DNA from: Opitutales bacterium
GTDB lineage: Bacteria > Verrucomicrobiota > Verrucomicrobiia > Opitutales > Coraliomargaritaceae
Direction of reading: 5' to 3'
Assembly (NCBI GenBank): GCA_049606355.1
Contig: JBMYVL010000005.1
Coordinates: forward strand, 100,806 to 132,805
DNA length: 32,000 nucleotides
The notes below the pieces were generated by a model. That model had not been told where the DNA came from, did not search any database, and saw only the letters and a list, made by a program, of their open reading frames with translations. Numbering within the stretch: the first letter of the stretch is position 1; each line of letters opens with the position of its first letter. Shown here piece after piece: positions 6,077-29,545 of the stretch. The position numbers and the translations under genes are program-made.

Positions 6077-6774
6077 AAGCATTACTGAGCATTCATGACT
6101 GCATGCCGGAAACTTTGGAGCGCGTGCTTACACTGATCGAATGGCTCCAGTCGCTCGGCGTGCCTCCCCTTACCTTGTTGGTCGTGCCCGGGAAAAACTG
6201 GACAGCGAGGCAACTCGAACAACTGCACCGTTGGGTCGAGCAGGGCCACACCCTCGCTGCTCACGGCTGGGACCACCAGACCCAGCCGCGCCGGGCTTAT
6301 CATCGTCTGCACGCCTACCTACTTTCCCGTAATGTCGCAGAGCACCTCGATCTGAACTCCACGGAAATCCTAAATCTCCTCTGTCGCGCCAAAGCGTGGT
6401 TTTCTCAGCACGCCCTCCCCGAACCCGAATTATACGTACCGCCCGCTTGGGCGCTCGGCACACTGCACCGCAACGATTTGGCAAAAGCCCCCTATTGCCA
6501 GATCGAAACAACTCGTGGTCTGTATCAGATCCACAACCAGCGCATCCAGCGGCAATCCTTGCCGCTGGTCGGTTACGAAGCCGATACCACACTCCGCGCA
6601 GCCTTCCTGCGTCGCTGGAACCAGGCACAAGCAGGTCGTGCGCAGCGCCGCCAGCTGCCGCTACGTATTTCGATTCATCCGGACGACTTACAACTCCGTC
6701 TTGCCGACCAAATGCAAGCGCAGCTCTGCGCCGTCACAGAATTCCTTCATTATCGCGATGTATCTCCTAACTGA
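6073..6774 (+). CDS. DUF2334-type predicted polysaccharide deacetylase-like protein
   Basis: Trimmed to the ATG at 6073, which overlaps the GT4 stop as ATGA. MKALLSIHDCMPETL...TLLVVPGKNW...GHTLAAHGWDH...YVPPAW... resembles the DUF2334 family as I recall it. The family assignment is from memory only. Confidence 0.6.
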   Translation: MKALLSIHDCMPETLERVLTLIEWLQSLGVPPLTLLVVPGKNWTARQLEQLHRWVEQGHTLAAHGWDHQTQPRRAYHRLHAYLLSRNVAEHLDLNSTEILNLLCRAKAWFSQHALPEPELYVPPAWALGTLHRNDLAKAPYCQIETTRGLYQIHNQRIQRQSLPLVGYEADTTLRAAFLRRWNQAQAGRAQRRQLPLRISIHPDDLQLRLADQMQAQLCAVTEFLHYRDVSPN

Positions 6775-7285
6775 GGGCGAAACCGAACGGTTGTATTTTC
6801 AGGCGTTCATCGCACAGTACGGCTGCCACGATGTCGCAGTCGCTCGGGGCCGCAGTTCAGATCCACTGCGTCTCGTTAGCGAGGCCATTCAAGCACGTTT
6901 GCCGAATCCAGACACCTGGGTCGTGCTCGATGCTGAACTCCACGACAGTGATCCCACGCGCCAACGACGCTTCCACAAAGCGCTGCGACAAGCCGCGCGC
7001 TATGACATTCGCATGGCCATCGCAGAACCCTGCTTTGAGGCGTGGCTACTCAGCCACCTAGACCTCCACAAGGATTATCGATTCAAGCAAACGAGCGCTT
7101 ACTTCAGCACTCTACTCGAACAAAAGACCGGGCTTGTGTATCAAAAAAGTCACTACGCAGCGGATTATTTTGTGCGCGCGGATCGCTTAGCGATCGCGCG
7201 ACAATCCCCCGTCGGCCGGCGTGGACTGTCACACTTAATTGAGTGTTTATTGAATCGCGCTGATTCCTTCACTCAGCGTCCCTGA
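6758..7285 (+). CDS. RloB-like (Toprim-related) protein, orphan
   Basis: Trimmed to the ATG at 6758, a 17-nt overlap with the preceding gene. MYLLTEGETERLYFQAF matches the RloB N-terminal signature (..vcEGekTE.nYF). IRMAIAEPCFEAWLLSHL matches the C-terminal signature (ia.SNPcFElWlLlHf). The central acidic motif reads VVLDAE. Confidence 0.6.
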   Translation: MYLLTEGETERLYFQAFIAQYGCHDVAVARGRSSDPLRLVSEAIQARLPNPDTWVVLDAELHDSDPTRQRRFHKALRQAARYDIRMAIAEPCFEAWLLSHLDLHKDYRFKQTSAYFSTLLEQKTGLVYQKSHYAADYFVRADRLAIARQSPVGRRGLSHLIECLLNRADSFTQRP

Positions 7286-7692
7286 AAACTGAGTACAATG
7301 CGCCGCTCATGACTGCGAGCGCGGTGCTCCCACAGGAACACGCCCTGCCAGGTACCCAGGCAGAGGCGTCCATCCACAAAGGGAATCACTTCAACCGTGC
7401 GCGTGAGTGCCATCTTAATGTGGCTCGGCATATCATCGGGGCCCTCACAGGTATGCGTAAAATCCGGATCTCCCTCAGGGACTAAACGATCTATAAAGCG
7501 CTCCAAATCACGCCGAGCCGATGGATCGGCATTCTCCATGATAACCAAACTGCAACTGGTATGGCAGCAAAACACAGTAACTGCGCCTTCCTGCAAACCG
7601 GAATCACGCAAGCCAGTCGCGATTGCATCTGTAAATTCCGCGGTCGATTTGCCCGGCGCCCGGACTGTGATTGCTTGTGTATAGACTGCCAT
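7273..7692 (-). CDS. yjbQ: YjbQ/UPF0047 family protein (secondary thiamine-phosphate synthase-like)
   Basis: 139 aa. VTVFCCHTSCSLVIMENADPSARRDLERF...HIKMAL...LGTWQGVFLWEHR is the characteristic YjbQ pattern. Its 3' end overlaps the convergent RloB-like gene by 13 nt. Confidence 0.85.
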   Translation of the reverse strand: MAVYTQAITVRAPGKSTAEFTDAIATGLRDSGLQEGAVTVFCCHTSCSLVIMENADPSARRDLERFIDRLVPEGDPDFTHTCEGPDDMPSHIKMALTRTVEVIPFVDGRLCLGTWQGVFLWEHRARSHERRIVLSFQGR

Positions 7693-7785
7693 GCTGAAAC
7701 CTTATGAAGGCGGCGGTGGTATTTAGCAAAAGAATGTCGCAAGTTTAATCTTTTTCCGCGGCGCTACCGCGCGTATAAACAATGG

Positions 7786-8217
7786 ATGCCTTTGTTGATT
7801 CGCGAGCTGAGCACCCTTAGCCTGTTGGTCGCACTCGGGGTCACCTATTCGCTCCTCACTGGGCCGGCCCCACGACCATGGGCACAAGCGACGCCGCCTG
7901 CCGGGGCGATTCGTGTAGCAGATGCGGCCGTACTCAATGTGCTGTGGATCGATGTGCGCAGTCGTCGCGCCTACGCAACTGGCCACATACCGGGCGCAGT
8001 GAGTGATCCTTCGGATGGCTCTGAATCGGGGCGGTTTGAATGGATGGAGGCATGGCTCGCCGCACCGCGCCCAATTATAGTGTACTGCGCGGATGCAGGC
8101 TGCGACCAAAGTCGTCAACAAGCGGAGCGATTGCGGAGCGATCTCCCGAATGCAGAAATTTATTACCTAGAAGGAGGATGGGCCGCATGGCAGGCTTACG
8201 CAACTACCTCAGATTGA
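7786..8217 (+). CDS. Membrane-anchored rhodanese-like domain protein
   Basis: 143 aa. N-terminal anchor LSTLSLLVALGVTYSLL. Rhodanese landmarks are VLWIDVRSRRAYATGHIPGAV and the active-site strand and loop IIVYCADAGCDQS, followed by YYLEGGWAAW. Confidence 0.75.
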   Translation: MPLLIRELSTLSLLVALGVTYSLLTGPAPRPWAQATPPAGAIRVADAAVLNVLWIDVRSRRAYATGHIPGAVSDPSDGSESGRFEWMEAWLAAPRPIIVYCADAGCDQSRQQAERLRSDLPNAEIYYLEGGWAAWQAYATTSD

Positions 8218-8624
8218 TCCTGCGCTTGAGCCTTGCCGGTGTATTTGTCGTGGCAGCACTTCCAAAGCTCCAGGATCCGGTCGGTTTCGCAGTCAGCATC
8301 ACAGGCTATCGCGTGGTTGGCACAACGACTGCGGCATGGCTCGCACTCATCCTCCCGTGGCTTGAGCTCGTCTGCGGAATTGGACTGCTCATTCCATGGT
8401 TGCGCCGCGGCAGTGCGCTGATCCTCAGCTGCCTTTTAACGCTTTTCGTAGGGCTGCACCTTAGCGTGGTCGCACGGGGCCTATCGATTGATTGCGGTTG
8501 CTTCGCATTTGCAGAGGCGACCCCCGTACATCCCTCAATAGTTATCCTCCGCACGGTGCTCCTGCTCATTGCCAGTCTTTACCTATTGTGGAGCGATGGG
8601 GGCGAGCGTGGCACTCGACCCTAA
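8187..8624 (+). CDS. MauE/DoxX-family redox-associated membrane protein
   Basis: The track ORF 8040-8624 is trimmed to the ATG at 8187, which lies 9 nt after a strong AAGGAGG (8171-8177). Four TM helices. LPKLQDP..F and the IDCGCFAF motif are typical of MauE-like proteins. Overlaps the rhodanese gene by 31 nt. Confidence 0.7.
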   Translation: MAGLRNYLRLILRLSLAGVFVVAALPKLQDPVGFAVSITGYRVVGTTTAAWLALILPWLELVCGIGLLIPWLRRGSALILSCLLTLFVGLHLSVVARGLSIDCGCFAFAEATPVHPSIVILRTVLLLIASLYLLWSDGGERGTRP

Positions 8625-8672
8625 TGACTTCAAGTCTTGCTTGTTGTAGCCGTCCGCCTATCCCCTTCCATT

Positions 8673-9344
8673 ATGTTACGTACCATCTTTCGCCGCAGCA
8701 TCGGAGTCATTGGCCTATGCCTTTGCCTGACCGCGCAGGCATCGACACTGACCTGGGATCGTACCGAAGTACGGATGGAATTGCAGCCACACGAAACGGA
8801 AGCGCAAGCGGTCTATACGGTAACCAACAATGGTACGGATCCGCTGCGTATGGACCGTTTGGAAACAAGCTGCGGTTGCACACTCGCCAAGATCGACCGA
8901 AAAATTCTGCGCACCGGTGAGTCTGCTCGCATCACTGCGATTTTCAATAAGGGGAAGCGGCAAGGGAAGAACCACACGACCGTAAAAGTCTACATGGAGG
9001 GGAAATCTGAACCGGTCGCCGTGCTGCACATGGTGGTGCGCATCCCACTATTGGTAGAGGCAACTCCGCGGATACTCTATTGGAAATCCGGAAGCCTTCA
9101 GACCGAACAGCAGATTCGCTTGGCCCTCGATCGCCGCTATATGGATCGCCTGACGGCAGTTGATTATGACCGGCAGCGCCTCACGGTGATTCAAGAGTCG
9201 GATCCGGACGGCAAAGTTGACTTCATCCTGCGTGTCACCCCAAAACGTTTCGACGCCTCATTGCGGGATACCATCGTCATCCATGCCTCGGGACCTGACG
9301 GTCTGCGCGCGGATGCGCGTATTCATGTATTTGTGCAGCCGTAA
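8673..9344 (+). CDS. Secreted DUF1573 domain protein
   Basis: Trimmed to the ATG at 8673, giving the signal peptide MLRTIFRRSIGVIGLCLCLTAQAS. The beta-sandwich-like N-terminal domain carries the DUF1573 hallmark LETSCGCT (CGC at 8871-8879). Confidence 0.75.
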   Translation: MLRTIFRRSIGVIGLCLCLTAQASTLTWDRTEVRMELQPHETEAQAVYTVTNNGTDPLRMDRLETSCGCTLAKIDRKILRTGESARITAIFNKGKRQGKNHTTVKVYMEGKSEPVAVLHMVVRIPLLVEATPRILYWKSGSLQTEQQIRLALDRRYMDRLTAVDYDRQRLTVIQESDPDGKVDFILRVTPKRFDASLRDTIVIHASGPDGLRADARIHVFVQP

Positions 9345-9360
9345 AACAACCGTACGGATA

Positions 9361-10833
9361 TCAAGCAAGATCGTACTGATCGATCCGTTTGCGCAGCGTG
9401 GCACGTGTCATGCCGAGAATTTTCGCAGCCGGGGCTTGCTTCCCTCCAGTCTCCGCCAGAGCGCGAGCAATGAGTGCCCGCTCCGCATGCTCTAGGATGT
9501 TACTGCCCTGCTCCGCGCGCAATTGCTGATATGCCGCGTCGAAGGGCGCTACTGCGGGAGCTCCCAACTCCGTATCCAAGTCGGGCGCAGCTGCAGCTGT
9601 TGCAGTCGACTCCGCCAGAACTGGCAAGTCTCCGACCGAATCAATAACCTCCTGCGGTAAATCCTTGATCAAAATACTATCACCCTGCGCCATCACCGCG
9701 CTGCGATAGATGATATTTTCCAATTCGCGAACATTGCCCGGCCAGCGATACTTCGAAAGTACCTCCAGTGCCTCTGGAGCAATCGACTGGGTCGATGCCT
9801 TGCGATCACTGGCGAGTCGCTTCAGGACAAAATCAATTAACTGCGGTACATCCTCCATGCGCTCGCGCAGGGGCGGCAGCTGAATCCGTACAACATTGAG
9901 TCGATAATAGAGATCTTCACGAAAGGTTTTCTCTGCCACCATCGTTTCCAGTGGCTTGTTGGTCGCCGCCAGCATGCGCACATTGACTTTGATGGTTTCG
10001 CTACTGCCGACCCGCTGAATTTCGCCTTCCTGTAAAGCACGGAGTATTTTGGTCTGCGTCGGCAGCGCCATATCGCCAATCTCATCGAGGAAAATGGTCC
10101 CTCCATCACATTGCTCAAATTTACCAATCCGCTGACCCGTGGCGCCGGTAAAAGCACCCTTTTCATGTCCAAAAAGCTCACTCTCAATTAGATTTTCCGG
10201 GATCGCCGCGCAGTTGACCGCGATGTAGGGCTGTGTGGCCCGCAAACTGTTTTGAAAGACGGCGCGCGCAATCAACTCCTTACCCGTGCCACTTTCACCG
10301 GTAATCATTACGGTCACATCGCTGGCGGCAACTTGGCCGATGGTCTTAAAGACTGCCTGCATCGCGGCAGAGCTACCGATAATGCCGCCTTCGATATCTT
10401 CTTGGCTCACGCTGGGGCCAGCATCGCCCTCCGCATGAGCTTTATCGAGATCCGCGGAAGCGGCTAAGGCGGCCTCTGTCAGCGCGAGGATCTTCTTCAG
10501 ATCGAACGGCTTCATAATATAATCGAAGGCGCCAAACTTCATGGCCTCAATCGTCGTCTGCGTGGTGCCATAGGCCGTCATCAAAATGATCATCGCATTC
10601 GGATTAATCCCGCGCAGATGCTGGAGCGCTTCGATTCCGCTCATTCCCCCCATGCGATTATCCAACAGGATCACTTGCGGATTGTACTGCTCCGCGGCCG
10701 TCAGGCCCTCCTCGCCGCTCGCGGCTTCGACGACCGTGTAGTTGCGGGCAGACAGGATACGTTTGAGCGAGTAGCGCAAGTCATCGTCATCATCGATCAC
10801 GAGCACGATGGGTTGAGTAGCTTTACTTGGCAT
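9361..10833 (-). CDS. Sigma-54-dependent response regulator (NtrC family: REC + AAA+ + Fis-type HTH)
   Basis: 490 aa. The REC domain (VLVIDDDDD..., [13 protein letters not shown] in IMKPF) is followed by a Walker A site GESGTGKE. The sigma-54 contact loop is EKGAFTGA. Also present are [21 protein letters not shown] and a C-terminal [19 protein letters not shown]. Confidence 0.92.
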
Positions 10834-10952
10834 GCAGTTACGGTTCAGGTGTTGGGCGTGGAGACGGACTATTCATTTGGCAGAAAGCTATCCCAAGAGC
10901 AGCTTCCGTACCGTATGCCCCAGCAAAGCTCGGGCGTGCCGCCTTCGCAAGT

Positions 10953-11459
10953 CTACAGCGCGCGATATTTTGCCCACAGGTGGGCAAAGGACCAGGCAAA
11001 ATCCCGAGGGCGCTCCGCCAACCAGGCATCCAAGGCAGGTAGATCCACCCAACGCCCCTCGCTGATTTCATCTGGGTCCAAGACAAAGGGTCCTTCGGCA
11101 CAGCAACGGTACACCCACACAAACTCCTGCCCCGTTTGTAGGCAGGCAGGCTCCTTAAAGACCGGAATCAATTCGGATTGCGGCACTAGCCCGATTTCCT
11201 CGCCGAGTTCACGCAGTGCCGCCGCCGCATAGCTTTCGCCATGATCCACGTGGCCGGAGCAAGAGCTCACCCACTTTCCGGGGGCAGTATCCTTTTGCAG
11301 TGAGCGACGCTGCAAAAAAAGCTGCCCCGCCGCATTGAAGACAAATATGTGCACGGCGCGATGAAGCAGGCCCTCGCGGTGAACCACGCTGCGCGCCTCG
11401 CTGCGGATGACCACATCGTTGGCATCGACCACATCAAAAAGTTCATCCGCGGGGTTCAT
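10953..11459 (-). CDS. NUDIX hydrolase (IDI/YfcD-like subgroup)
   Basis: 168 aa. The Nudix box is [23 protein letters not shown] (GX5EX7REUXEEXGU). The preceding [31 protein letters not shown] is typical of the IDI-like Nudix clade. Confidence 0.8.
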
Positions 11460-11593
11460 AAGAGGAAAGACGGGGCAAGCGAAGTAAAGTCATGCCACTT
11501 TGTCAGTGTCACGCACTGCTTTGTTCAATAAATCCGCGCGACAGCCCAAAATTTCATCCACACCACTCCCCTGCAGGCTGAGGCCGCCGCTCA

Positions 11594-12574
11594 TTAGCGA
11601 ATCAAATCCTTAAAATCCTCAAACTGGCCGGTAAATCCACCCGGGACTCCCTTATGAATGACGGCGACGGCGTCATGCGAGTGCAGCGACTCTAAATGAG
11701 CACAGGCAACCTGAAAGTCAGCGATGCGCGACTCCGCAGCGAGTTGCTCGTACAGTAAGCGCGCTGCGTCTTCGACGAATTTGGTGAACGCCCCATTCAG
11801 TTCCGCAAAGGCCTGCTCATCCTCACGCTTCACCATTACCTGCGTCTCGGTCTTGAGCGCCTCTAAGCAGAGTTGCTGCAGCGCCTCAATGCTCAGATGC
11901 TGCCCCTCAGCCACTTCCACACTGACACGTGCGGTACTGCGCTGCGAATGCGGGATGCCGTAAATATTGCGACTATCGCGTGCATGCTCGGACAGTTCCG
12001 ACGAGCACGGACAAGCAGAGGAGTAGATGAAGTCGAAATGGATGTATTTCCGAAAACGGTCGAGCTCGTCGACCTTACCTTCAAACGCACTGCGGTAGTA
12101 CTGCCAGCCCTCGAGCCCGCTGCGCAAACTGGACTTGAGGATCGGATATTCAAACTCCAGCTTGAGTTGCGCACGATGGGCGCGAATCTCCCGCTTGTAC
12201 GCCTCGAGAATCGCCTGCAGTAGATCCGGCGTAAATATACGCTCTTGGAACTCATAAAAGACCCGCATGATGCGCGACATATTGATGCCCTTCTGGTCCG
12301 CCTCTAATGAGACGGTACCCGTCACCGAGGTTTCCAATGTGTGCGTATCCGAGCTCGGTGTGATGTAACGCAGCGGTAAACGAAAGTTGGAAATCCCGAC
12401 CTTCAAAATCGGCACATTCGCCCCAAAAATCTCGCGCGCATCTGCATTCTGCATATCCGGCAAACTGGCACGATACGCATCGGTCAAGACGAACTCGTCG
12501 TCATAGACTTTATTGGGCTGCGCACCATGGCGAGCGGGCGCCTGTTGCGCTGCACTGTCCTGATTATTTTTCAT
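11594..12574 (-). CDS. folE2: GTP cyclohydrolase I type 2 (GCYH-IB, FolE2/MptA family)
   Basis: 326 aa. LPDMQN near the N-terminus, [24 protein letters not shown] (KGxHMSRF-like) and the [12 protein letters not shown] cysteine motif match FolE2 landmarks. Confidence 0.75.
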
Positions 12575-12668
12575 TGAAATTGTGAAACCCCACGGAGCTA
12601 GAGATGTACCTGGCAGACCTTGACCAAGAACGGCGCCAACTGCAAGTACCTGCTGCGATTGTGGAGCG

Positions 12669-12687
12669 TAGCAAGAAAATCATTATC
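12669..12687. promoter_or_regulatory. Fur-family (Fur/Zur-like) box candidate in the folE2 / MBL divergent intergenic region
   Basis: tagcaagaaaatcattatc matches 14 of 19 positions of the classical GATAATGATAATCATTATC box, and the right-hand 11 nt (AATCATTATC plus the preceding A) match perfectly. It lies about 95 nt upstream of the folE2 ATG and about 66 nt upstream of the MBL ATG. Confidence 0.25.
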
Positions 12688-12752
12688 CGCGCAGACGCAA
12701 GCGTGTAAAAATGCTTTGCGAGCGAGCGCTTCGCCACTCAACCTGCTGCAAA

Positions 12753-13538
12753 ATGTCAGCTGATTTTAAGATCTTAGGTTCCAGTAGCAGTGGCAACTGC
12801 GCCCTACTTCGCACCGGACAGACACGAGTCTTGATTGATGCCGGTTTCTCGGGGAAGCGTATTGGCGCGATGCTCGAAGCGGTCGACGAGCGCATTGAAG
12901 CGATCGATGCCGTCTTCTTAACCCATGAACACAGTGACCATGCACAAGGCATTCGCGGATTGGCGCGCTTCGCCGACCTGCCGATCTTTGCCAATCGCGA
13001 CACGGCCGATGCGGTCCAAGCCAAACTCAGCAAACGCCCGAATTGGCAAATCTTCGAAACCGGCAGCGCGTTTCGCTTTCGCGACATGGAGATACGCTCA
13101 TTTGCGCTCCCCCATGACGCCTATGATCCCGTCGGCTACACCTTCCACTGGGGGGAAGACGGCGACCTCATCTCCCCGCGGCAAAGCCTCGCCTGGGTCA
13201 CCGACCTCGGCTACATGCCTGCGCACGTGCGCGAACACATTCGCGGGGTTGAAACACTGGTCATTGAGGCCAATTACGATGAAGCGCTGCTGGAGCAAGA
13301 CACCAAGCGCCCGTGGTCAACCAAGCAGCGCATACGCGGACGGCACGGCCACCTTTCCAATACAGCCGCCTTTGAGGCAATCAACAGCTTGAACGGCGAT
13401 TCCCAGCTGCGCGAAGTGTACCTGGCTCATTTGAGTCGCGACTGTAACACCGTGGAGCGTGTGCGCGCGACTTTTGCAGGGCTGCACGCAGCCAATCGTT
13501 TCGCCATAAATGTTATCGACCCGGCCGCCAGTAACTGA
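12753..13538 (+). CDS. MBL-fold metallo-hydrolase (YycJ/PhnP-like)
   Basis: Trimmed to the ATG at 12753 ([19 protein letters not shown]...). The metal-binding motif is [12 protein letters not shown], followed by later conserved D/H residues (VTDLGY, HLS). Confidence 0.8.
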
Positions 13539-13566
13539 CCTGATAACACTCTTATTTAGACAAACC

Positions 13567-14991
13567 ATGGATATCGGATATCGTAAAACAAAGATTATTT
13601 TCACCGTCGGTCCTGCGACGATGGAGGAAGCGGTGCTGGAGCGCCTGATTGAAACGGGCGTAGACATCTGCCGCATTAACATGGCACATGCGGATCATGA
13701 GTGGACCCGTGAAATTATCCGCCGGGTGCGGCGCGTGGGTGAAAAGTGTGGTCGTCAGATTGCCATTCTAATGGATGTTAAAGGTCCGGAAATTCGCACG
13801 GGCGACGTTCCTGAAACCTACGCACTTGAAGTCGGCGAACGCCTCGACTTCACCTACGGGAGCGGGATCGGCAGTACCGGCGCGGATGGTGTGCGCCGCG
13901 TCGACGTCAACTACCCGGGACTCATGCAAGATATCAAGGTCGGCGACACCGTGCTGGTCGACAGTGGCTTGATTCGCCTCAAAGTGCTCGAAATTGAAGA
14001 CGCCCGCGTGCGTACCGAAGTGATCATCCCGGGGCCACTGGGTAATCGCCGCCATATTAACCTGCCCGGCGTGCGCGTGAATTTGCCGGCGCTGACCGAG
14101 AAAGACCAAGCCGATGTGGATGTCGGCATCGAAGCTGAGATTGACTTCTTTGCACTGTCCTTTGTGCGCGAACCGAACGATCTCGACATCTTCCATCAGT
14201 ACCTTGAGGAACGCGGCTCCAGCGCGAAAATCATTGCCAAAATTGAAGACCAGCAAGCGATCAGCAACCTGGAAGGCATTATTAAAGCTTCGGATGGCCT
14301 AATGGTTGCGCGAGGCGATCTGGGTATCGAGTGCCCCTTTGAGGATCTGCCGCTCATTCAGAGTCGGGCAGTCCGAATGTGTATCCAAAACACCAAGCCG
14401 GTGATCGTGGCCACACACATGCTCGAATCGATGATTGAGTCGCCGATTCCCACACGTGCGGAGGTCACCGATATCGCCAATGCGATCCGTGAACAAGCAG
14501 ACTGCGTGATGCTTTCCGGCGAAACCACCGTGGGCAAATATCCGGTCGAATGCGTTGAAGCGATCAATCGCATCGCTCATCGTACTGAGCGGGAGCAGAA
14601 GGAGGTCTTGCGTCAGGATCTGCAGCTCAATCTGCCTCGCTCGATGATGTTGCGCGCGGCCGCACAACTTGCCGCCAACATGCAAGCCACTGCCATCTTG
14701 GTCTTTACGCGGCGCGGCATTTTCTCGCAAAAGCTGTCCTCGCTGCGTCCGCTGGTTCCTATTTACGCGTTCACAGACAATCCGGTACTGTTTCGCCAAA
14801 TGCTTATCATGCGCGGCATCGAACCCTTCTACATGAAATTTGATCATGACCACGAGGCAACCATTCAAGACGCCTTTGCGCGACTGAAGGAGCGCAAATG
14901 GACCAAGCCGGGCGACCCGATCGTGGTGGTCACCAAGCTGTACGCGGGTGAAAAGTTGATCGACAGCACGCAGATTCGTGAGATAGATTGA
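13567..14991 (+). CDS. pyk: Pyruvate kinase
   Basis: Trimmed to the ATG at 13567 ([18 protein letters not shown]). Canonical PK motifs are present: [43 protein letters not shown] and [12 protein letters not shown]. Confidence 0.95.
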
Positions 14992-15549: not shown

Positions 15550-16743
15550 TCAACCGGAGCGGGTAGGCCTGGAGGCGCTACGAAGCCCCTGCCACAAGAG
15601 TCCGCTCAAAGCCATCCACACGATGGCCTGAAAGGAGCTGAGCCAACCAAACAGGCTCAAGCCGACACCTGTAGCTGCAGTCATCAAGCCGCAGGCGAGC
15701 ACCGCTTGCGAAGGTCGGCTTTGAGCGGCGCGCGCCAAGGGGTACAAGGCTCCGGCAAAGCATGCGGCAAGAATCGATTCTAGCCCACGACTGACCGGCG
15801 AATCGAGATGAAGCACGATTCCCAGCGGCAGGCCGCAGAGCACAGCGCGCAGGTAGTACTGCAACCAACGCTGGACCTGCTGCGGCTCAAGCCCGCGAGC
15901 AGAGGGGGACGCTTCGCCCAGTGAGGCACGACTCTGGCACCAACGACCGAAGAGTAACACCGTGAGCAGTGCGGACAAGGGCCACAAGCCCGCTCCTTCG
16001 GCATCGGCGTGAAAGAACGCACGCAACTGCCACCCCGTTAAAAGCACGATACCCAAGGCCACCAATAAATCATAATGCAGGAGACGCGCTTGCAGGGAGC
16101 GCCATGCGGGCACGATAAAATGGCTGCCGCCGACCAGTAGACTCAAGATCGCGAAACAGAGCTCCAGCAGTCGGAACAAGCCGTGCAAAGAAGGGTCGAG
16201 CGAGGTGGTGAACTGTGGTGTGGACAGCAGCAGACCGTTTAGCGCGAATATACCACACAACACCCAGCGCCAAGTTAGGGGCGACCAACGCGCCGTCACC
16301 CCCTCGCGAAACGGCGCCGCGCTGTAGCCGAACGACCGCAATTCCGCGAGGAAGGCGGCTAAATCGAACGCCCGCGGTTGCCACTGCATCCATAGGCTGC
16401 GCCCTTCAAGACTCACGCGTGCCTGCTCTGCCCCCTGCTGTCGTTTAAACAGGTGCTCCACCAGCCACGCGCAGCCCAAGCAACTCAAGCCATCCAAGCG
16501 GAGTTGGCAGCGGCACCCCTGAGCTTCGCTGGTAGCCTGCAACGCTGCAGCCCAGGCGAAGGCAGCGCGATCGACTGCAGCCGCATCGACTGGACGGCCG
16601 GCCTCATCTCGCATCGCGTAAAAGGTCTCAAGGCCTGCCTCGCGAATGCGCTCATAAACCTGCGCGCAGCCTGCACAACAAAACTCAGCTTTCTTAGCGG
16701 TTGCGGCAAAGGTCGTACCGCAATGTTTGCAGATCTGTTTCAT
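15550..16743 (-). CDS. Membrane protein resembling the N-terminal module of a P1B heavy-metal ATPase (Cys-rich metal-binding domain + HMA-like domain + TM helices), with no A/P/N catalytic domains
   Basis: Trimmed to the ATG at 16743 (MKQICKHCGTTF...EFCCAGCAQVYERI), the CxxC...CCxxC pattern of the CcoI/FixI-type N-terminal metal-binding domain. LRLDGLSCLGCAWLVE is HMA-like (GMxCxxC). GGSHFIVPAWRSLQARLLHYDLLVALGIV and LLFGRWCQSR mirror the pre-actuator TM region of Cu/Zn ATPases. I saw no TGE, CPC, DKTGT or GDGxND motifs. Confidence 0.65.
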   Translation of the reverse strand: MKQICKHCGTTFAATAKKAEFCCAGCAQVYERIREAGLETFYAMRDEAGRPVDAAAVDRAAFAWAAALQATSEAQGCRCQLRLDGLSCLGCAWLVEHLFKRQQGAEQARVSLEGRSLWMQWQPRAFDLAAFLAELRSFGYSAAPFREGVTARWSPLTWRWVLCGIFALNGLLLSTPQFTTSLDPSLHGLFRLLELCFAILSLLVGGSHFIVPAWRSLQARLLHYDLLVALGIVLLTGWQLRAFFHADAEGAGLWPLSALLTVLLFGRWCQSRASLGEASPSARGLEPQQVQRWLQYYLRAVLCGLPLGIVLHLDSPVSRGLESILAACFAGALYPLARAAQSRPSQAVLACGLMTAATGVGLSLFGWLSSFQAIVWMALSGLLWQGLRSASRPTRSG

Positions 16744-16790
16744 TGTCTCGCCGGTCCTCGCGCTTGCCGAAGCAAGCCCATCCACTCCGC

Positions 16791-19700
16791 TTACGATGCA
16801 TCAAAGCGCTCGATGCCCTTACGTACATCGGCGAGAAACGCAGCCGCACCGACGCCATTCACCCAGCGATGATCAAAGGTGAGCACGAGCGACACGACTT
16901 CCATCGTCCCTCCATCCGAGGACTTCGGATCCGGTAAGGTGAAAGGCGCACCAATAAAGAGCGTCGCGACCGATGGCGGCACGACCACTGGGATCGCCGA
17001 GCGCACATGGTAAGCGCCCATACTGGAAATCGACACTGCCACGCGATTTTTGGAGGCCACTTCGCCCTGCCGGGTTGCGCGCAAGGCGGCGTTGAAAGCC
17101 TCTGGAAACTGTGCCCAGTCGAGGGTGTTGGCTTCTTTAACCACGGCCGTCTCCAAAACATCCCCCGGCAAAGCCACCGCCACGCCAAGGTCAATCCGCT
17201 CAGGATCATGCATCAACTCACCGCCGCGGATAAACGAGGCAAAGCGCTCGTGTTTTTGCATCGCCTGAAGCACCGCCCATGCAGTCATCGTCGCAGTCGA
17301 CAGGGTGCCGCCGCCGGCCTCCTTACTGCGCAGGCGCGCATCCCGCACGGCCTCCCAACGGCAGGTCATATCAATCGTCGCCGGAACGATGCCCTCCAAT
17401 TGGCGAATGGCTTCCATCGAAAGCCCCGCGGACTTCTTCAAACTGGCATAATCCTGCGGGGCCGTTGTCACCGCAGGGGCTGCGGTGGCGGACTGCGTGG
17501 CAACCGAGCGGCTGACTTTTAAGATCGCGAGCTCCTGCCCGACTTTGACTTCGTCCGCTTCGGCAATTTTCCACTCCTGCAACACACCATCTGTATCACA
17601 TTCGATCGGGAAGACCGCTTTATCGGTCTCCACTTCACAGAGCGCATCATCCGCCTGGATAGGATCCCCGACTTGCTTGAGCACGGAAACAACCCGCGCC
17701 ACGCGGATCCCCTCCCCTAAAATCGGCACCGTAATGACTTTTTCGCTCTCTTCCATCATTGCTTGCTCCATCGCTATCGTAGTATCAGGTGCGCCGCCCG
17801 CAGTCGGGTGTGTAACTGCTTCGACATCCAGTTTGAGTGAAGCCTGCAATGTCGAAGCGAGCAAGCGCTCGATTGCGGCCAGGATTCGTTCCTTATCAGG
17901 TAAAGCCGCATATTCGTAAATTGGGTTGAAGCCGACATGCACATCCGCCTTCGAGACAATCACTGGTGGGCTCTTCAGGGCTTCCAGCAGGGCACGTTCA
18001 CTGCATAAGTCTGCGACAATCATCTGGCCGACGCTGGCGCTGATGTTATCTTCCTGAACGATCAGCAAACGCCCGGTCTTTTGCACGGATTCAAGCAGTG
18101 CCGCCCGATCCCACGGCGCAATCGAGCGCAGATCGATACACTCCACCGAGAGCTGAGTATCCATGCCAGCCAAGGTCTCTTCGACCAATTCCACGCAGTT
18201 CCCCCAAGTCACCAGCGTCAACAAATCCCCCTCACGCACGCGACGTGCCTTGCCGAGCGGGATCGCCTCTACCGGAGCGACCGTCGCTTGCTCGGCCCAC
18301 ATTAAATGCTTGGGCAGGAGAATAATCGTTGGGTCTCCACCCTGCAGGGCTGTCCAAAAAAGGCCTGCGGCATCATTGGGCGTCGACGGCACGACGACAC
18401 GGATACCGGGAATGCGCGCGAACGAAGCTTCGCCCGCCTGACTGTGCCACAGCGCACCGCCGGGCAGGTAACCGCCACAGGGCGCATAAATAACCAGTGG
18501 GCATTGCCAATTGCCAAAACTGCGCCAGCGCAGGGTCGCCATATTCGAAACAAGTTGATTCCAGCCGGGGTATATAAAATCGACAAACTGTATTTCGAAA
18601 CAGGGACGTTTGCCATAGGACGCCAGCCCCACGGCCACACCCATGATGGTCGATTCCGCCAAGGGCGAATTAACCGCGCGCGACGGATCTTTCGTCGACA
18701 GCCCTTTGGTTAAATTAAACACGCCACCTTTCGGATCCGCAATATCTTCACCAAAAAAGACCACGTCGGGCAGGGTATCCATCGCGCTATGGAACGTGCG
18801 GTTGACTGCATCCAACATCCGGCAGGAGGGCTCCAGCTCAACCGTTGGCGGAGTCGGATTGACCGGTTCGCCGACGAGGTGCAAGGTACTCTCACTGGCG
18901 AGTGGATCGGTCGCACCGCTGGCAATTCGGTAGGCCTCGCGGACTGCTTCGCGTGTACTCGCTTCGAGCTCGGCAGCCGCCGCCTCGGTGAGCACGCCTT
19001 CATCAATCAAGCGCTGCTGGTACAGTACGATCGGATCGCGCGCGTGCATCGCTTCCAGTTCATCGGCGGCGCGATACATGCGCTGATCATCGGCGCTCGA
19101 ATGATTGGAAAAACGCTCCACATCACACCAGATAAAGGCGGGGCCCTGCCCCGCTCGTGCGCGTGCCACCGCCTCCCGGCCGGCAGCTGCCACCGCTTCG
19201 ACGTCGCTACCATCCACGCGCAACCACTCACGTTGATCGAGCACGCCCAAGGCCAAGGGATTGGTCCGCTGCGTCGATGTACTGATCGCGATACGGTTGT
19301 CCTCGACGACAAAGACCACCGGCAGGCAGCGCTCTTTGGCAAAACACACCGCTTCAAAAAAATCACCCTGGCGCGCAGACGCTTCGCCCAAGGAAGCGTA
19401 CACTACGTTCGACTTCCCATCGAGCTGCATCCCCCAAGCTGCCCCACAGGCAGGTAGAAGATGCACCCCGACCGGAGAGGGATGACTCCAAATATTGAGC
19501 GCGCGATCACTGAAGTGGCCGGTCAATTGGCGGCCGCCACTGGAGGCCTCGCGCTTTGCATAAAAAGCCAAGGCCAGATCATGATCACTGAGGCCCCGCT
19601 GCAGGCAAAACGCACGATCGCGGTAATAGGGAAAGGCATAATCGTCCGGCTCCAGCTCCAGCGCAATCGCTGCCAAGGCCTCATGCCCCATGCCGGAGAT

Positions 19701-19838
19701 ATGGAACCAACCCTTCCCCTGCCGAATGAGACTTTGTTCGCGTAAATCACCCAGCCGGCTGCGCCAGAGTGTGTGGAGCAACGCCACGCGTTTGTCTGAG
19801 CCGAGCTGCACCGTCGCAGTTGAGTCGTTGTGTGCCAT
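16791..19838 (-). CDS. Fused 2-oxoacid dehydrogenase: E1-alpha + E1-beta + lipoyl domain + E2 acyltransferase core in one 1015-aa chain
   Basis: Approximate domain limits: residues 1-320 E1-alpha, 338-662 E1-beta, 700-776 lipoyl domain, 803-1015 E2 core. E1-alpha carries the TPP motif [38 protein letters not shown]1-beta shows [24 protein letters not shown] and [13 protein letters not shown]. The lipoyl domain is ITVPILGEG...[13 protein letters not shown]. The E2 core shows VSISSMGAY and [16 protein letters not shown]. Confidence 0.85.
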
Positions 19839-19926: not shown

Positions 19927-19964
19927 GGAAAATGTAAAAGCTAGGCGACGCAAGCGGCGCCTAG
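19927..19964 (-). terminator. Candidate intrinsic terminator after opcA
   Basis: The 24-nt near-perfect hairpin ctaggcgacgcaagcggcgcctag (19941-19964) has a 7-bp stem, one mismatch, 2 more bp and a tetraloop. On the minus strand it is followed by CUUUUACAUUUUCC. The stem begins at the opcA stop codon. Confidence 0.4.
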
Positions 19965-20941
19965 AAAAACAGGGCTTCCGCCAAGGCTTGCTCCGCTGCC
20001 AGGGCTTTCACGTGTGTGGGCACGTGCTCCACATGTTGGCCAAAGTTGGCATCGATAACGCCACGAGAGGCTTCCGCCAACTTACGCCACTTGAAAAAGC
20101 GCTCGTCCACATAGGCAAACTCCAGACTCAACAGGCAGTCGCTGGCTGCATCGTCGCACGGCAGAATCTCTGTCGCGATCGCAGCAGTCTGGTCTGCTGG
20201 TGCGCACTCCCGCAGGCAATCGAGGGCCCAGTCCATTAAGCGCTGCGCCTCGCCGCGCATGCTCGGACAATGGCGAATGGTGATTCCCTGGAGCCCGGCA
20301 TACAGTTGCTCACTGGAATAACCGCTCAAAAACTGGCCAATTGATTGGCGCACCGGCAACAGGCGCGCCTTGGCAAGGTCATGCACGCGTCCCGGTTCAG
20401 GCCAGTCGAGTTGCTCCAAGGCGGCGGACTCTAAACTGCTGTCGTAGACGCAGCGCCGCACGCCCACCAAGAGATTGTTGAAATACTTCTCGATACGGTG
20501 CGCGGGGACTTCGCTGAACCAATGGTAGGTCGGCAAGTCGCCCTCCAGCCAGACCGATACCTGATTGGAGAGATAGCCGAAATCCTCGGGCTTATAGCGG
20601 AGCAACAGTGCTTCACAGCAGCACATTTCCCGATGCGAATCACCAATGTAACACTGGCTAAAAAGCTTCGCGGTCATCGACCCATCCTCGATCGCATGGC
20701 TGGGGCATAGCACGATAATGCGACTCGGGTAGCGCTGGGCAAAGCGAATGAGCGCATCAAAGCGCGCCCGCGCCGCCTCGGGAGCCACCTCTGCACCAAA
20801 ATGCAGGACCACGTTCATTTGCGAGGCGCGAAACTCGGTGGGCGCATCGGTGGTATCGGTCGCCCACATCGCCGCCAGACGCTCGGTCACCTCACGCACA
20901 GGGAGTTCAATCCCCGGCAGCACATCGATCAGTTCAGACAT
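19961..20941 (-). CDS. opcA: OpcA-like glucose-6-phosphate dehydrogenase assembly protein
   Basis: 326 aa, immediately downstream of zwf on the same strand. FRASQMNVVLHF, PSRIIVLCP, CCCEALLLRY and WLEGDLPTYHWF correspond to the OpcA pattern (RAstlNLvv, P.R.Ivl, vC.E.i.l, LL..DLPv.LWW). Confidence 0.7.
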   Translation of the reverse strand: MSELIDVLPGIELPVREVTERLAAMWATDTTDAPTEFRASQMNVVLHFGAEVAPEAARARFDALIRFAQRYPSRIIVLCPSHAIEDGSMTAKLFSQCYIGDSHREMCCCEALLLRYKPEDFGYLSNQVSVWLEGDLPTYHWFSEVPAHRIEKYFNNLLVGVRRCVYDSSLESAALEQLDWPEPGRVHDLAKARLLPVRQSIGQFLSGYSSEQLYAGLQGITIRHCPSMRGEAQRLMDWALDCLRECAPADQTAAIATEILPCDDAASDCLLSLEFAYVDERFFKWRKLAEASRGVIDANFGQHVEHVPTHVKALAAEQALAEALFF

Positions 20942-20965: not shown

Positions 20966-22522
20966 TCAGCCGGAGCGGCGCCATTGGTGGCCACCCTCCT
21001 CGAGTAATTGCTCACTTGCCTCGGGCCCCCAGGAGCCGGCGGCATATTCTTCGAGCCCCTCGGCACCACTGGCGGCCCAGTAATCAAGGATCGGCGTGAT
21101 CAATTTCCAGGAGGCCTCCGTCTCATCGCCGCGAATGAATAAAGTACTATCGCCGACCATTGCGTCCAGAATCAGACGCTCGTAAGCCTCCGGTGTGTTC
21201 GAGCCGAATGTGGTCGCATAACGGAAATGCATCTTCACCGGTTGCGTGCGGGTTTCCAAACCGGGTATTTTTGAATTCATCACCAGCGTCACGCCCTCAT
21301 CAGGCTGGATGCGGATCACCATCGTATTCGCGGCGACGTCAAATTTCTCCCCTTCCGAAAAAAGAATCCCCGGCGGGCGCTTGAACTGGATCGCGATTTC
21401 ACTGGTACGGCGTGGCATCCGCTTACCCGAGCGAATGTAGAATGGTACGCCCTTCCAGCGCCAATTATTGATCGATAGCCGTAAGGCTGCGTAGGTCTCC
21501 GTTGTCGACTCAGCCGGGATATCGACTTCCTCGGCATAGGCTTTGACGGGCTCGCCGTCGACCAGGCCTTTCGCGTAGCGTGCGCGGACCACATCCCCCG
21601 CGGCTGGCTGCAGCTTCAGCGGCTGAATCGCTTTGAGGACCTTCACCTTTTCATCGCGGATCGACTCCGGATCGAGCGAGACGGGCGGTTCCATCGCCGT
21701 GAGTGCCACCAACTGCATGGTATGATTCTGAATCATATCACGCAGGGCACCGCTGGTATCGTAGTAGCCGCCACGGTTACCCACCCCTAAGCTCTCTGCG
21801 ACCGTAATTTGCACGTGGTTGACGTGCTCGCGATTCCACATCGGCTCAAAAATCGAATTCGCGAAGCGCTGCACCAACAAATCCTGCACCGTTTCTTTAC
21901 CGAGGTAGTGATCGATGCGGAACACTTGCGACTCCTCAAATACCTGATTGATGGAGGCATTCAGCGCACGGGCAGACTCCAGATCATGGCCGAAAGGTTT
22001 CTCAATGATCACCTTCGACGCGTATTTGCTGTGCACATGCGCACTCGCCAACCCACTGGCCCCTAAGTTGGCAATGATCGGCTCAAACACACTGGGGGGT
22101 GTCGAAATATAAAACAAGCGCTGCACCTCACGGCCGAGCTCTGCTTCGATGGCATCAATCTTCGCCGCCAGCGAAACAAAGGCTTCGGGGGCATCGTAGC
22201 CACCCGTGTGGTAACAGGTGTTGTGCCGCACGCGCTCCCAGATTTCCGCATTCATTGGTCGACGTGAAAACTCGCCAATCGCTTGGTCCATACTCTCGCG
22301 GAATTTAGCATCTGCCATCGGCTTGCGGCCAAAACCAATCAAATGAAACTCGCCGGGCAGTAAGTTATCTACGCCGAGGTTAAAAATAGCAGGTACCAGC
22401 TTGCGGGCAGTCAAGTCACCGGAGGCGCCAAAGATCACCACCACCGTGGGCGGTGCGCCGCGGTGCTTGCTCAAGCCCTTCAGGAAGGGGTGCCTAGATT
22501 CGTCAGTTGTGGTCGTCATCAC
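20966..22522 (-). CDS. zwf: Glucose-6-phosphate 1-dehydrogenase
   Basis: 518 aa. The NADP site is VVIFGASGDLTARKL. The catalytic signature is RIDHYLGKETVQDL, followed by EKPFGHDL. The track start is the GTG at 22522. The ATG at 22519 is an equally plausible start. Both overlap the yraN stop codon. Confidence 0.95.
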   Translation of the reverse strand: MMTTTTDESRHPFLKGLSKHRGAPPTVVVIFGASGDLTARKLVPAIFNLGVDNLLPGEFHLIGFGRKPMADAKFRESMDQAIGEFSRRPMNAEIWERVRHNTCYHTGGYDAPEAFVSLAAKIDAIEAELGREVQRLFYISTPPSVFEPIIANLGASGLASAHVHSKYASKVIIEKPFGHDLESARALNASINQVFEESQVFRIDHYLGKETVQDLLVQRFANSIFEPMWNREHVNHVQITVAESLGVGNRGGYYDTSGALRDMIQNHTMQLVALTAMEPPVSLDPESIRDEKVKVLKAIQPLKLQPAAGDVVRARYAKGLVDGEPVKAYAEEVDIPAESTTETYAALRLSINNWRWKGVPFYIRSGKRMPRRTSEIAIQFKRPPGILFSEGEKFDVAANTMVIRIQPDEGVTLVMNSKIPGLETRTQPVKMHFRYATTFGSNTPEAYERLILDAMVGDSTLFIRGDETEASWKLITPILDYWAASGAEGLEEYAAGSWGPEASEQLLEEGGHQWRRSG

Positions 22523-28107: not shown

Positions 28108-29544
28108 CTAGGCAGTAAGGATCCCCAGCGGTGACGCGGGATTGGCAAAGCTAAAATTATGAATGTTCGGAATCACCGTACTCATCTCCGACTGAGGCAC
28201 ACCAAACCAAGCCGCCAGTTCACACATATAGGCATCCGTGGACGTCGACGGAAGGATGCGGCCGCGACCGACATCATTGGGCCCGCCATTCGCAAGGATT
28301 GGGTACTCCCCAAAAATCTCTCCCCCGTTGGCACTGCCACTGATAATGAAATGATTGCCGCCCCAAGCGTGGTCCGAACCACTCCCGTTGGACGTCAAGG
28401 TACGCCCAAAATCCGAGGCAGTGTACAGCACCACGTTATTCTCCAAGCCAAGGTTCACGACTTCCGACCAGAAGGTTTGAATCGCTTCATTGAGCTCCAC
28501 AAAGAGTCCTGCTTGCGGTGCAATGACCTCGTTGTGGTGGTCCCACCCCCCACGCTCCACAAAGAAGATTTGTCGATTCATGTTCAGCGCTGTGCGCGCT
28601 TCCATAATCTTTGGAATCATCGCCAAGCGCGCGCGTGTGGGTGTATAGTCTGCCACTGCGGCAGGATCGAACGGCACCGCTAAGCCGTCCAAAGCACTTT
28701 TGAAGGCAATCGATGCATCAATCGAACCGCGGTTGGCCTGTGCCAGTGTCTTCGAGTAAATACTGTGGTAGTGTTGGCTGAGCACATCATCCACCGCCAA
28801 ACGCAGCGTCGGATCCTGACTGTAGTCCCGCAGCTCCACCGCGCCGCCGGGGTCGGTGATATAAGGGATGGTGGTCAGCCCCGATTGCAGGACATTGGTT
28901 CCCGACAGCGAGATATTCATCGCAAAATTGCTCTGCTGATTCGCGTGGGCCATCACTTCCGCCATACGGCCGGCCCAGCCCTTTGGACTGGTGCCCCGCA
29001 CTTGCGGCACCAGCGTCTGCCAGTGCACCTGATGGTCCGGGTGAGAGAACAAGCCTTCGGGCAAGGGCTTCGTCCCATCATTGTACTGCGCCAGCGAGGT
29101 GGGCTCGATCAGCGAGCCCACGTTACTGACAAAGGCCAAATCCCCCTGATCATAGAGTGTTTTGAGAAAGGGCAAGTCCGGGTGAATCCCGAATTCACTG
29201 TAACCCGCACCGCCCGATGCAGTTTGCATTGCCGATGTAATCGGCAGCAGATCTTCCCTACGGTGCGCTAATCCATCACTGCTATCTAAATAAGTACCCC
29301 CCCGCGCAGTCGCATACTCATTATAGGCACTTTGCTGGCGCGGCACCAACATATTAAAGGAGTCATTGCCACCATTGAGAAATAAACAAACCAGCGCCTT
29401 GTAATCGGAAAAATTGGAAGCGGACGCGGCGCCCGCAGTTAAACGGAGGGACAGCAAGGAGGACAAGAGCGAGGCGCTACCGATCGCCGCGCAATTTGCC
29501 TGTGCTAAAAACTGCCGTCGTGAGATCTTGTGCTTCCCATTCAT
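28108..29544 (-). CDS. DUF1501 domain protein (sulfatase/alkaline-phosphatase superfamily) with a Tat signal
   Basis: 478 aa. The twin-arginine signal is KISRRQFLAQANCAAIGSA. ERGGWDHHNE and SDFGRTLTSNGSGSDHAWGG correspond to the DUF1501 conserved blocks (GGWDTH, FGR.P..N..GRDHW). Confidence 0.85.
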   Translation of the reverse strand: MNGKHKISRRQFLAQANCAAIGSASLLSSLLSLRLTAGAASASNFSDYKALVCLFLNGGNDSFNMLVPRQQSAYNEYATARGGTYLDSSDGLAHRREDLLPITSAMQTASGGAGYSEFGIHPDLPFLKTLYDQGDLAFVSNVGSLIEPTSLAQYNDGTKPLPEGLFSHPDHQVHWQTLVPQVRGTSPKGWAGRMAEVMAHANQQSNFAMNISLSGTNVLQSGLTTIPYITDPGGAVELRDYSQDPTLRLAVDDVLSQHYHSIYSKTLAQANRGSIDASIAFKSALDGLAVPFDPAAVADYTPTRARLAMIPKIMEARTALNMNRQIFFVERGGWDHHNEVIAPQAGLFVELNEAIQTFWSEVVNLGLENNVVLYTASDFGRTLTSNGSGSDHAWGGNHFIISGSANGGEIFGEYPILANGGPNDVGRGRILPSTSTDAYMCELAAWFGVPQSEMSTVIPNIHNFSFANPASPLGILTA

Positions 29545-29545
29545 A

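Follow-up and report, generated by a model that had tools for sequence, protein, structure and literature searches.

As textbooks describe them, 2-oxoacid dehydrogenase complexes are megadalton machines in which a core of acyltransferase (E2) subunits recruits the 2-oxoacid dehydrogenase (E1) and dihydrolipoamide dehydrogenase (E3) components by means of the peripheral-subunit-binding domain, or PSBD, with variable stoichiometry. The actinobacterial OdhA and the trimeric AceF have recently been put forward, reportedly, as challenges to this view. In the canonical branched-chain 2-oxo acid dehydrogenase (BCKDH) of Thermus thermophilus, Pseudomonas putida or human, composed of E1b (alpha2beta2), a 24-mer of E2b, and E3, the catalytic modules are carried by three separate chains. 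Here we describe a gene that joins two of these components in one chain. It lies in a stretch of 32,000 nucleotides from an Opitutales bacterium (assembly GCA_049606355.1, contig JBMYVL010000005.1, positions 100,806 to 132,805; hereafter the window), and encodes a protein of 1015 amino acids (aa) in which E1 alpha and E1 beta are followed by a lipoyl domain and then by an E2 core. Judging from sequence and gene context, the protein is probably a functional single-chain E1 plus E2 of a 2-oxoacid dehydrogenase, most likely the BCKDH of this bacterium.

The gene is an uninterrupted open reading frame (ORF) that starts with ATG and spans positions 16791..19838 of the reverse strand, with its stop codon at 16791-16793; all the parts of the fusion described here are on the same strand. 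A Pfam scan identified E1_dh (residues 31-309, E=4e-56, 190.6 bits with a gathering score of 22), which makes up the E1 alpha module (18912..19748), followed by an alpha/beta connector (residues ~310-340, 18819..18911) that is mostly coil in the structural model. The E1 beta module (17883..18818) consists of Transket_pyr (residues 341-512, E=4e-31, 108.3 bits, gathering score 27) and Transketolase_C (residues 529-652, E=3e-19, 69.6 bits, gathering score 25.9). A first disordered linker (residues 664-697, 17748..17849) connects it to the lipoyl domain (Biotin_lipoyl, residues 701-773, E=7e-16, 58.2 bits, gathering score 22.1; 17520..17738), and a second, Ala/Thr/Pro-rich disordered linker (residues 777-805, 17424..17510) leads to the E2 acyltransferase core (residues 806-1015, 16794..17423), matched by 2-oxoacid_dh (residues 821-1012, E=1e-24, 87.5 bits, gathering score 23) and ending in the short tail IERFDAS.

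The initial annotation of this gene, made from the sequence alone, had predicted a single polypeptide with these modules, the five Pfam families and the absence of E3_binding (PF02817). The scan returned the domains in the predicted order, with both the lipoyl and the E2 domain in the C-terminal part and without E3_binding. The residues singled out in that annotation also agree with the translation: their codons are at 19386-19388 (G151), 19296-19298 (N181), 17619-17621 (K740), 16869-16871 (H990) and 16857-16859 (N994). NCBIfam models recognised the same modules, every match being far below its curated cut-off, so that the fusion belongs to no curated equivalog. Among solved structures, no single chain covered all modules of the protein. 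A promoter and terminator scan around the gene gave nothing above shuffled expectation.

The catalytic residues of the fusion are conserved. In an alignment of 90 sequences, spanning 48-80% identity, the invariant positions included, for the alpha part, H52-E53, Y72-R73, G151, D180-N181 and H246; for the beta part, E395 and H465; for the lipoyl domain, K740 (in EVETDKA); and for the E2 core, S939, D989-H990-R991, N994 and G995, which take in the catalytic His and the Ser expected at the oxyanion site. In a separate, more divergent alignment of 16 sequences, N994 was nearly invariant, and S939 was not among the listed conserved columns. The motif for thiamine diphosphate (ThDP) and Mg2+, G-[DE]-[GA]-x(24-27)-[DN]-N, is satisfied by G151-E152-A153...D180-N181 (nt 19296-19388). 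Glu152 was considered as a marker of BCKDH and dropped: residue 152 is Glu in the clade of the window, but the majority consensus of the fusion family is Asp (GDA). Judged by its motif, E395 is probably the ThDP-activating Glu of the beta subunit. The reductive acylation of the lipoyl domain by BCKDH requires two His residues. By motif, H246 (NHSSADD) and H465 (WHSQ) appear to be the counterparts of human BCKDH His291-alpha and His146-beta', which the title of PDB 1ols names. The lipoyl domain was modelled as all-beta, and K740, in a DKA-type motif, is its predicted lipoylation site.

The E2 motif (nt 16854-16874) reads DHRxxNG (within FDHRWVNG), with Asn994 at position His+4, and the initial annotation had pointed out that it differs from DHRxxDG. 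The Asn is kept throughout the fusion family, where it is invariant or nearly so, and it is native to the well-studied Azotobacter vinelandii E2p (Ser558, His610 and Asn614; titles of PDB 1dpb and 1dpc). DHRxxNG is thus a known natural variant, and does not mark the E2 as inactive or odd. In Escherichia coli E2o, replacement of the equivalent Asp (D379A) leaves 9.5% of the activity (PMC5986005).

We assessed the spread of the fusion with a search over 5.8 billion proteins, complemented by a profile search for more distant clusters, and with a scan of reference genomes (one genome per GTDB species), which gave at least 80 loci, 80 of them fetched with 10 kb flanks on either side. The 511 relatives counted in the genome scan may include ordinary E2 lipoyl domains, and our claims rest on the 80 inspected loci. 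At least 120 clusters showed 74-80% identity to the window protein, every one of them full length and with the same five Pfam domains; their sources are named as Coraliomargarita, Lentimonas, Puniceicoccaceae, Opitutaceae and Opitutales, some of them on contigs of 4-5.4 Mb. The profile search added at least 120 further clusters that are 48-51% identical and have these five domains too, under Chthoniobacterales, “Spartobacteria” or Verrucomicrobiota names. The fusion gene was present in all 80 fetched loci, 78 of which carry Verrucomicrobiota-lineage names. Approximately 70 of these loci are free of contig-end cuts, and, with a single exception, they encode the fusion as one ORF of ~1000-1150 aa that ends in DHRxxNG. 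Since the ORF is continuous in nearly all complete loci and the architecture is shared, the fusion is not a sequencing error. The verrucomicrobial E2-type fusions fell into one clade in a rough tree built from the E1 region by neighbour joining. The shared architecture and intact ORFs make the fusion a conserved, widespread verrucomicrobial trait; the question raised initially, of how far this architecture extends, is answered by at least 80 species-level genomes with almost exclusively Verrucomicrobiota names, and the gene of the window is not a one-off.

The exception among the complete loci (L014) has an in-frame TAG at positions 8972-8974 of that locus, near the start of E1 beta, which leaves a 362-aa E1 alpha piece and a 655-aa E1 beta-lipoyl-E2 piece. 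This is the sole interrupted copy, and may be due to a sequencing error or reflect a real pseudogene or split gene. We also observed typical verrucomicrobial fusions in two bins labelled Polaribacter (L011) and Burkholderiaceae (L064), with 68% and 40% identity, respectively, over the lipoyl and E2 part; mis-binning is likelier here than transfer.

We found no paper on an E1ab-lipoyl-E2 single chain in open-access full text, where absence is weak evidence. The initial annotation had likewise known of no characterised example, and had considered that the architecture might turn out to be common and already described: it is common, and no biochemical description of it appeared in the same literature. 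In databases, these proteins are named “thiamine pyrophosphate-dependent enzyme”, “2-oxoisovalerate dehydrogenase E1 component” or, occasionally, “2-oxo acid dehydrogenase subunit E2”. The chemistry is thus known, and what is unusual and apparently uncharacterised is the covalent organisation, with a fixed 1:1:1 ratio and no docking domain.

In canonical E2 chains a PSBD of ~35 aa separates the lipoyl domain from the core. In the fusion this place is taken by the second linker, which was initially judged to leave no room for a PSBD. Three lines of evidence agree with this. E3_binding (PF02817) had no match in the 1015-aa protein even at E<=1, nor in 17 relatives at E<=0.01. A regular expression for PSBD-like motifs found none in the linkers of 90 homologs (0/90), in which the first linker has 34-58 aa and the second 22-61 aa, both compositionally biased and unconserved. 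Finally, the AlphaFold2 model of the fusion has a mean pLDDT (predicted local distance difference test) of 76, but residues 664-697 and 777-818 score below 50; the sole structure within these segments is a four-residue helix ahead of the first core helix, which leaves no two-helix PSBD fold. A cryptic PSBD in either linker was thus ruled out.

The lack of a PSBD has a precedent in eukaryotic E2o (DLST), where an unstructured Ala/Pro-rich loop stands instead and MRPS36 brings in E3 (PMC9974300). In other respects the two differ: eukaryotic E2o forms a 24-mer core, works with a separate E1o and relies on the adaptor MRPS36/KGD4 for E3, whereas no adaptor is known for the fusion. Regarding E3 itself, the initial annotation had reported no lpd/E3 gene in the window, and we concur: neither an E3 nor a lipoate ligase gene is among the window ORFs, and a regular expression for the E3 active site (class-I disulfide reductases) gave no match in the window or within 10 kb of the fusion in the 80 loci. 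E3 would therefore have to come from elsewhere.

Several features of the fusion point to BCKDH. The closest solved E1 chains are those of the T. thermophilus branched-chain enzyme, both for beta (1um9_B, 1.4e-61, 39% identity, TM score 0.87) and for alpha (1um9_A, 3e-38), and human and P. putida BCKDH are the next-ranked solved E1 matches. The fusion has the same catalytic modules as canonical BCKDH, and shares with it the ThDP/Mg motif, the two His, the lipoyl Lys in DKA and the E2 Ser and His. Gene neighbourhoods concur. In ~25 loci of the Chthoniobacterales type, aspartate kinase and threonine synthase genes are found on one side of the fusion, and on the other side genes for a crotonase-family hydratase, an HMG-CoA (3-hydroxy-3-methylglutaryl-coenzyme A) lyase-like protein (215 bits, with a cut-off of 246) and the beta subunit of an acyl-CoA carboxyltransferase. 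In one locus (L076), positions 7089-14760 of the forward strand form an apparent operon, in which the crotonase gene overlaps the start of the fusion by 4 bp and is succeeded, on the same strand, by the carboxyltransferase-beta gene and, after a gap, by a 3-hydroxyacyl-CoA dehydrogenase gene. These liu-like neighbours are downstream steps of branched-chain amino-acid catabolism, so that many fusion orthologs share a catabolic acyl-CoA neighbourhood with canonical BCKDH. From these neighbours and the E1 similarity, a fused BCKDH is the best assignment. It would differ from the canonical enzyme in being one chain instead of three, in having a disordered linker of 22-61 aa where E2b has a PSBD, and in its stoichiometry, fixed at 1 E1ab : 1 lipoyl : 1 E2.

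A number of observations weigh against this interpretation. The fusions of the window clade are next to zwf, opcA, pyruvate kinase and membrane protein genes, with no leucine-catabolic genes, so the BCKDH context is transferred from orthologs that are 45-50% identical. Among beta chains, the E1 beta of Geobacillus pyruvate dehydrogenase (PDH) ranks next and is nearly as close as that of BCKDH, and the top NCBIfam models are PDH models, NF008854 (PDH E1 beta, 1e-56) and TIGR03181 (PDH E1 alpha, 3e-56). No E3 gene was found within 10 kb at any of 81 loci, the window included. The E2 core is divergent, with 18-24% identity to solved cores, and its N-terminal helix is shortened. Finally, the window copy ends in ...GIERFDAS, while nearly all close relatives end in ...GIERFDLV (or DLT, DLI and similar). 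With a divergent core, a short N-terminal helix and an odd tail, core assembly may be atypical.

Some of these observations would fit a different role for the same single-chain enzyme, as the pyruvate dehydrogenase of the organism, making acetyl-CoA. Besides the Geobacillus and NCBIfam matches, this would suit the window, where the fusion lies between zwf/opcA and pyruvate kinase, all of them central-carbon genes. However, the NCBIfam scores are under half of the curated cut-offs, the zwf/pyruvate kinase synteny is restricted to some Opitutales loci and occurs there in differing gene orders, and where the neighbours are conserved and co-oriented they are acyl-CoA and leucine-catabolic genes. 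The top structural and sequence matches are, moreover, to BCKDH E1. We thus regard a pyruvate dehydrogenase as unlikely, though it is the main alternative, and retain BCKDH as the preferred assignment.

In the window, the fusion is preceded by zwf (20966-22522, reverse strand) and by an opcA-like gene (19961-20941, reverse strand), which is separated from it by a 122-bp gap and is matched only by the N-terminal OpcA domain (4.9e-11). OpcA is an assembly protein of glucose-6-phosphate dehydrogenase. The order zwf-opcA-fusion, usually continued by the membrane protein gene, occurs in the window and five further Opitutales loci; zwf-opcA is downstream of the fusion in other Opitutales loci and is absent from the Chthoniobacterales loci. 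This adjacency looks like lineage-specific synteny without obvious functional meaning. The membrane protein gene (411 aa, 15550..16785, reverse strand) begins 5 bp past the stop codon of the fusion, and follows the fusion in ~10 Opitutales loci; the two genes are probably co-transcribed. Its product has an N-terminus that resembles the metal-binding domain of cation-transport ATPases (ATPase-cat_bd, PF12156; weakly HMA-like), and no ATPase domains.

Modelled alone with AlphaFold2, the E2 core reached a pLDDT of 83 and a predicted TM score (pTM) of 0.83. Superposition of the model on the solved cores of E2o, E2p and E2b, and on OdhA's E2-like domain, gave TM scores of 0.72-0.80, at the low identity given above. 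In canonical E2 cores, which are 24- or 60-mers, the C-terminal tail forms the contacts between trimers (the “knob”). The fusion family keeps a C-terminal IExFx[LIV] motif, and the DAS ending of the window copy (residues 1011-1015, 16794-16808, reverse strand) may therefore matter for assembly.

A fixed 1:1 fusion of a dimeric E1 with a trimeric E2 had been noted initially as a question of symmetry. Nature offers a solved case: the OdhA/KGD of actinobacteria assembles into a homohexamer of 800 kDa, with E1 dimers as its blades and two E2 trimers placed on either side (PMC10415282). By analogy, a hexamer of ~660 kDa would be the simplest closed solution for the fusion, and larger cages are possible. 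OdhA/KGD (PDB 8p5r-8p5x) is like the fusion in carrying E1 and an E2 acyltransferase domain on one polypeptide, and the resemblance is confined to the E2 domains (TM ~0.73). The order of the modules is E2-E1 in OdhA and E1-lipoyl-E2 in the fusion; the E1 of OdhA is of the large homodimeric E1o (SucA) type, while that of the fusion is of the heterotetramer type with alpha and beta fused; and OdhA lacks a lipoyl domain and borrows those of AceF, whereas the fusion has its arm built in. By order, E1 type and lipoyl domain, the 1015-aa protein is thus not an E2-E1 fusion of the OdhA/KGD type.

What we observed is the order and conservation of the domains, the missing PSBD, the intact catalytic residues, the taxonomic range and the neighbouring genes; the activity, substrate, oligomeric state and E3 partner of the fusion we infer as follows. 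Two chains would pair through their fused alpha-beta E1 parts to form the ThDP sites, where the 2-oxoacid would be decarboxylated and the lipoyl-Lys740 of the same chain reductively acylated. The lipoyl domain, held between disordered linkers of ~35 and ~30 residues, would then hand the acyl group on to the E2 core at the C-terminus, presumably a trimer with its active sites at subunit interfaces, for transfer to CoA. With E1 covalently tethered, a PSBD would be dispensable and could have been lost. The arm would be re-oxidised in trans by an E3 encoded elsewhere, which may either act without stable docking, as the L-protein does on the H-protein in glycine cleavage, or bind at another site. 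The dimer-forming E1 and trimer-forming E2 parts could close into a hexamer, as in OdhA/KGD, or into a larger cage.

The front end of the fusion is also found in other proteins. Many fused E1 alpha-beta proteins (“2-oxoisovalerate dehydrogenase E1 component”, a JGI name) have the architecture of its first ~660 residues; they are 600-760 aa long, 35-50% identical, and end after Transketolase_C, where the fusion continues to the lipoyl domain and E2. When 1.84 billion representatives were scanned exhaustively with HMMER, the E2-type fusion made up just ~10-13 clusters at 50% identity. A large and almost unannotated family of ~40 further clusters, of 1090-1170 aa, emerged in which the E1ab-lipoyl front end is followed by a beta-ketoacyl-acyl carrier protein synthase III (KAS III; FabH-like, ACP_syn_III and ACP_syn_III_C) instead of E2. 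Examples of the latter (P0147, P0152 and P0170) are 33-39% identical to the window protein over its first ~780 residues. Individual proteins had still other arrangements: E1ab-lipoyl-E2core-ACP, with an acyl carrier protein domain (P0128, 1227 aa), E1ab-lipoyl-KASIII-KR-ACP (P0190, 1942 aa) and E1ab-lipoyl-thioesterase (P0151, 1091 aa). We take the first of these to resemble a fused form of the glycolyl-ACP systems QncN/QncL and NapB/NapD. As in the window protein, no PSBD was matched in the KAS III-, thioesterase- or ACP-type fusions; they differ from it in that the acceptor is not a plain CoA-dependent E2 core, and in coming from other, metagenomic lineages. In the rough E1-region tree, non-verrucomicrobial E2-type fusions were scattered among KAS III-type and E1ab-only proteins, which suggests that the E1ab-lipoyl unit has been joined to different acceptors more than once. 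The domain order of the KAS III type suggests a direct hand-over of the acyl group from the lipoyl arm to the FabH-like condensing enzyme.

These relatives raise the alternative that the verrucomicrobial fusion works as a dedicated donor of acyl groups to lipid or secondary-metabolite synthesis, supplying for instance branched fatty-acid primers, rather than a catabolic dehydrogenase. The ~40 KAS III clusters, the architectures of P0128, P0190 and P0151, and the scatter of E2-type fusions among these types in the rough tree are consistent with it, as is the fact that in several bacteria BCKDH supplies branched primers for iso- and anteiso-fatty acids. The verrucomicrobial proteins, however, end in a plain E2 core without ACP or KAS, and their conserved neighbours are catabolic. 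We find this alternative improbable, although it overlaps with the BCKDH assignment, since one BCKDH can serve both roles.

The weakest alternative, an artefact or a decaying gene, due to a missed stop or frameshift that joins separate genes for E1 and E2 or amounting to an inactive relic, could invoke the in-frame TAG of the related locus L014 and is effectively refuted, with hardly any likelihood left to it, by uninterrupted ORFs in ~69 of ~70 complete loci from independent assemblies (some genome-scale), by at least 240 clusters of identical architecture, by catalytic residues that are all invariant or nearly so across sequences just 48-80% identical, and by linkers that vary freely between conserved domains, a pattern that marks a functional multidomain protein under purifying selection. 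The same clusters, with the 80 reference-genome loci, rule out an assembly or frameshift artefact.

Returning to the single-chain dehydrogenase, we tentatively propose a broader picture, for which the odds seem to us somewhat short of even. Verrucomicrobiota would possess a minimal and self-contained “three-in-one” enzyme, each chain with its own E1, arm and E2, assembled into a hexamer or small cage through E1-dimer and E2-trimer contacts instead of a PSBD-decorated 24- or 60-mer, and served by an undocked E3 in trans. The enzyme would be a member of a modular E1ab-lipoyl-X family, in which the arm passes its cargo directly to a fused E2, KAS III, thioesterase or ACP-linked domain. If so, the KAS III members would bypass free acyl-CoA. 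The KAS III, thioesterase and ACP fusions suggest that 2-oxoacids may enter lipid or polyketide synthesis by unrecognised routes.

The verrucomicrobial enzyme would represent a second, independent departure from the textbook organisation, with E1 tethered, its own lipoyl arm and no PSBD. With one gene plus E3, it would also be a simpler experimental system, which could address what architecture active-site coupling needs, how E3 finds a lipoyl domain without docking, and which closed assemblies a dimer-trimer fusion forms. Since the automated names of these proteins are generic, their E2 function is overlooked, which affects metabolic reconstructions of Verrucomicrobiota.

Elsewhere in the window, a DUF2334/polysaccharide-deacetylase-like ORF (6028-6774, forward strand) overlaps an RloB-like ORF (6515-7285, forward strand), which may mark a defence-related gene; the pair (6028-7285) adjoins sulfotransferase and glycosyltransferase genes. 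Lastly, adjacent genes for a DUF1501 protein (478 aa) and a DUF1800 protein (746 aa) occupy positions 28108-31786 of the reverse strand.

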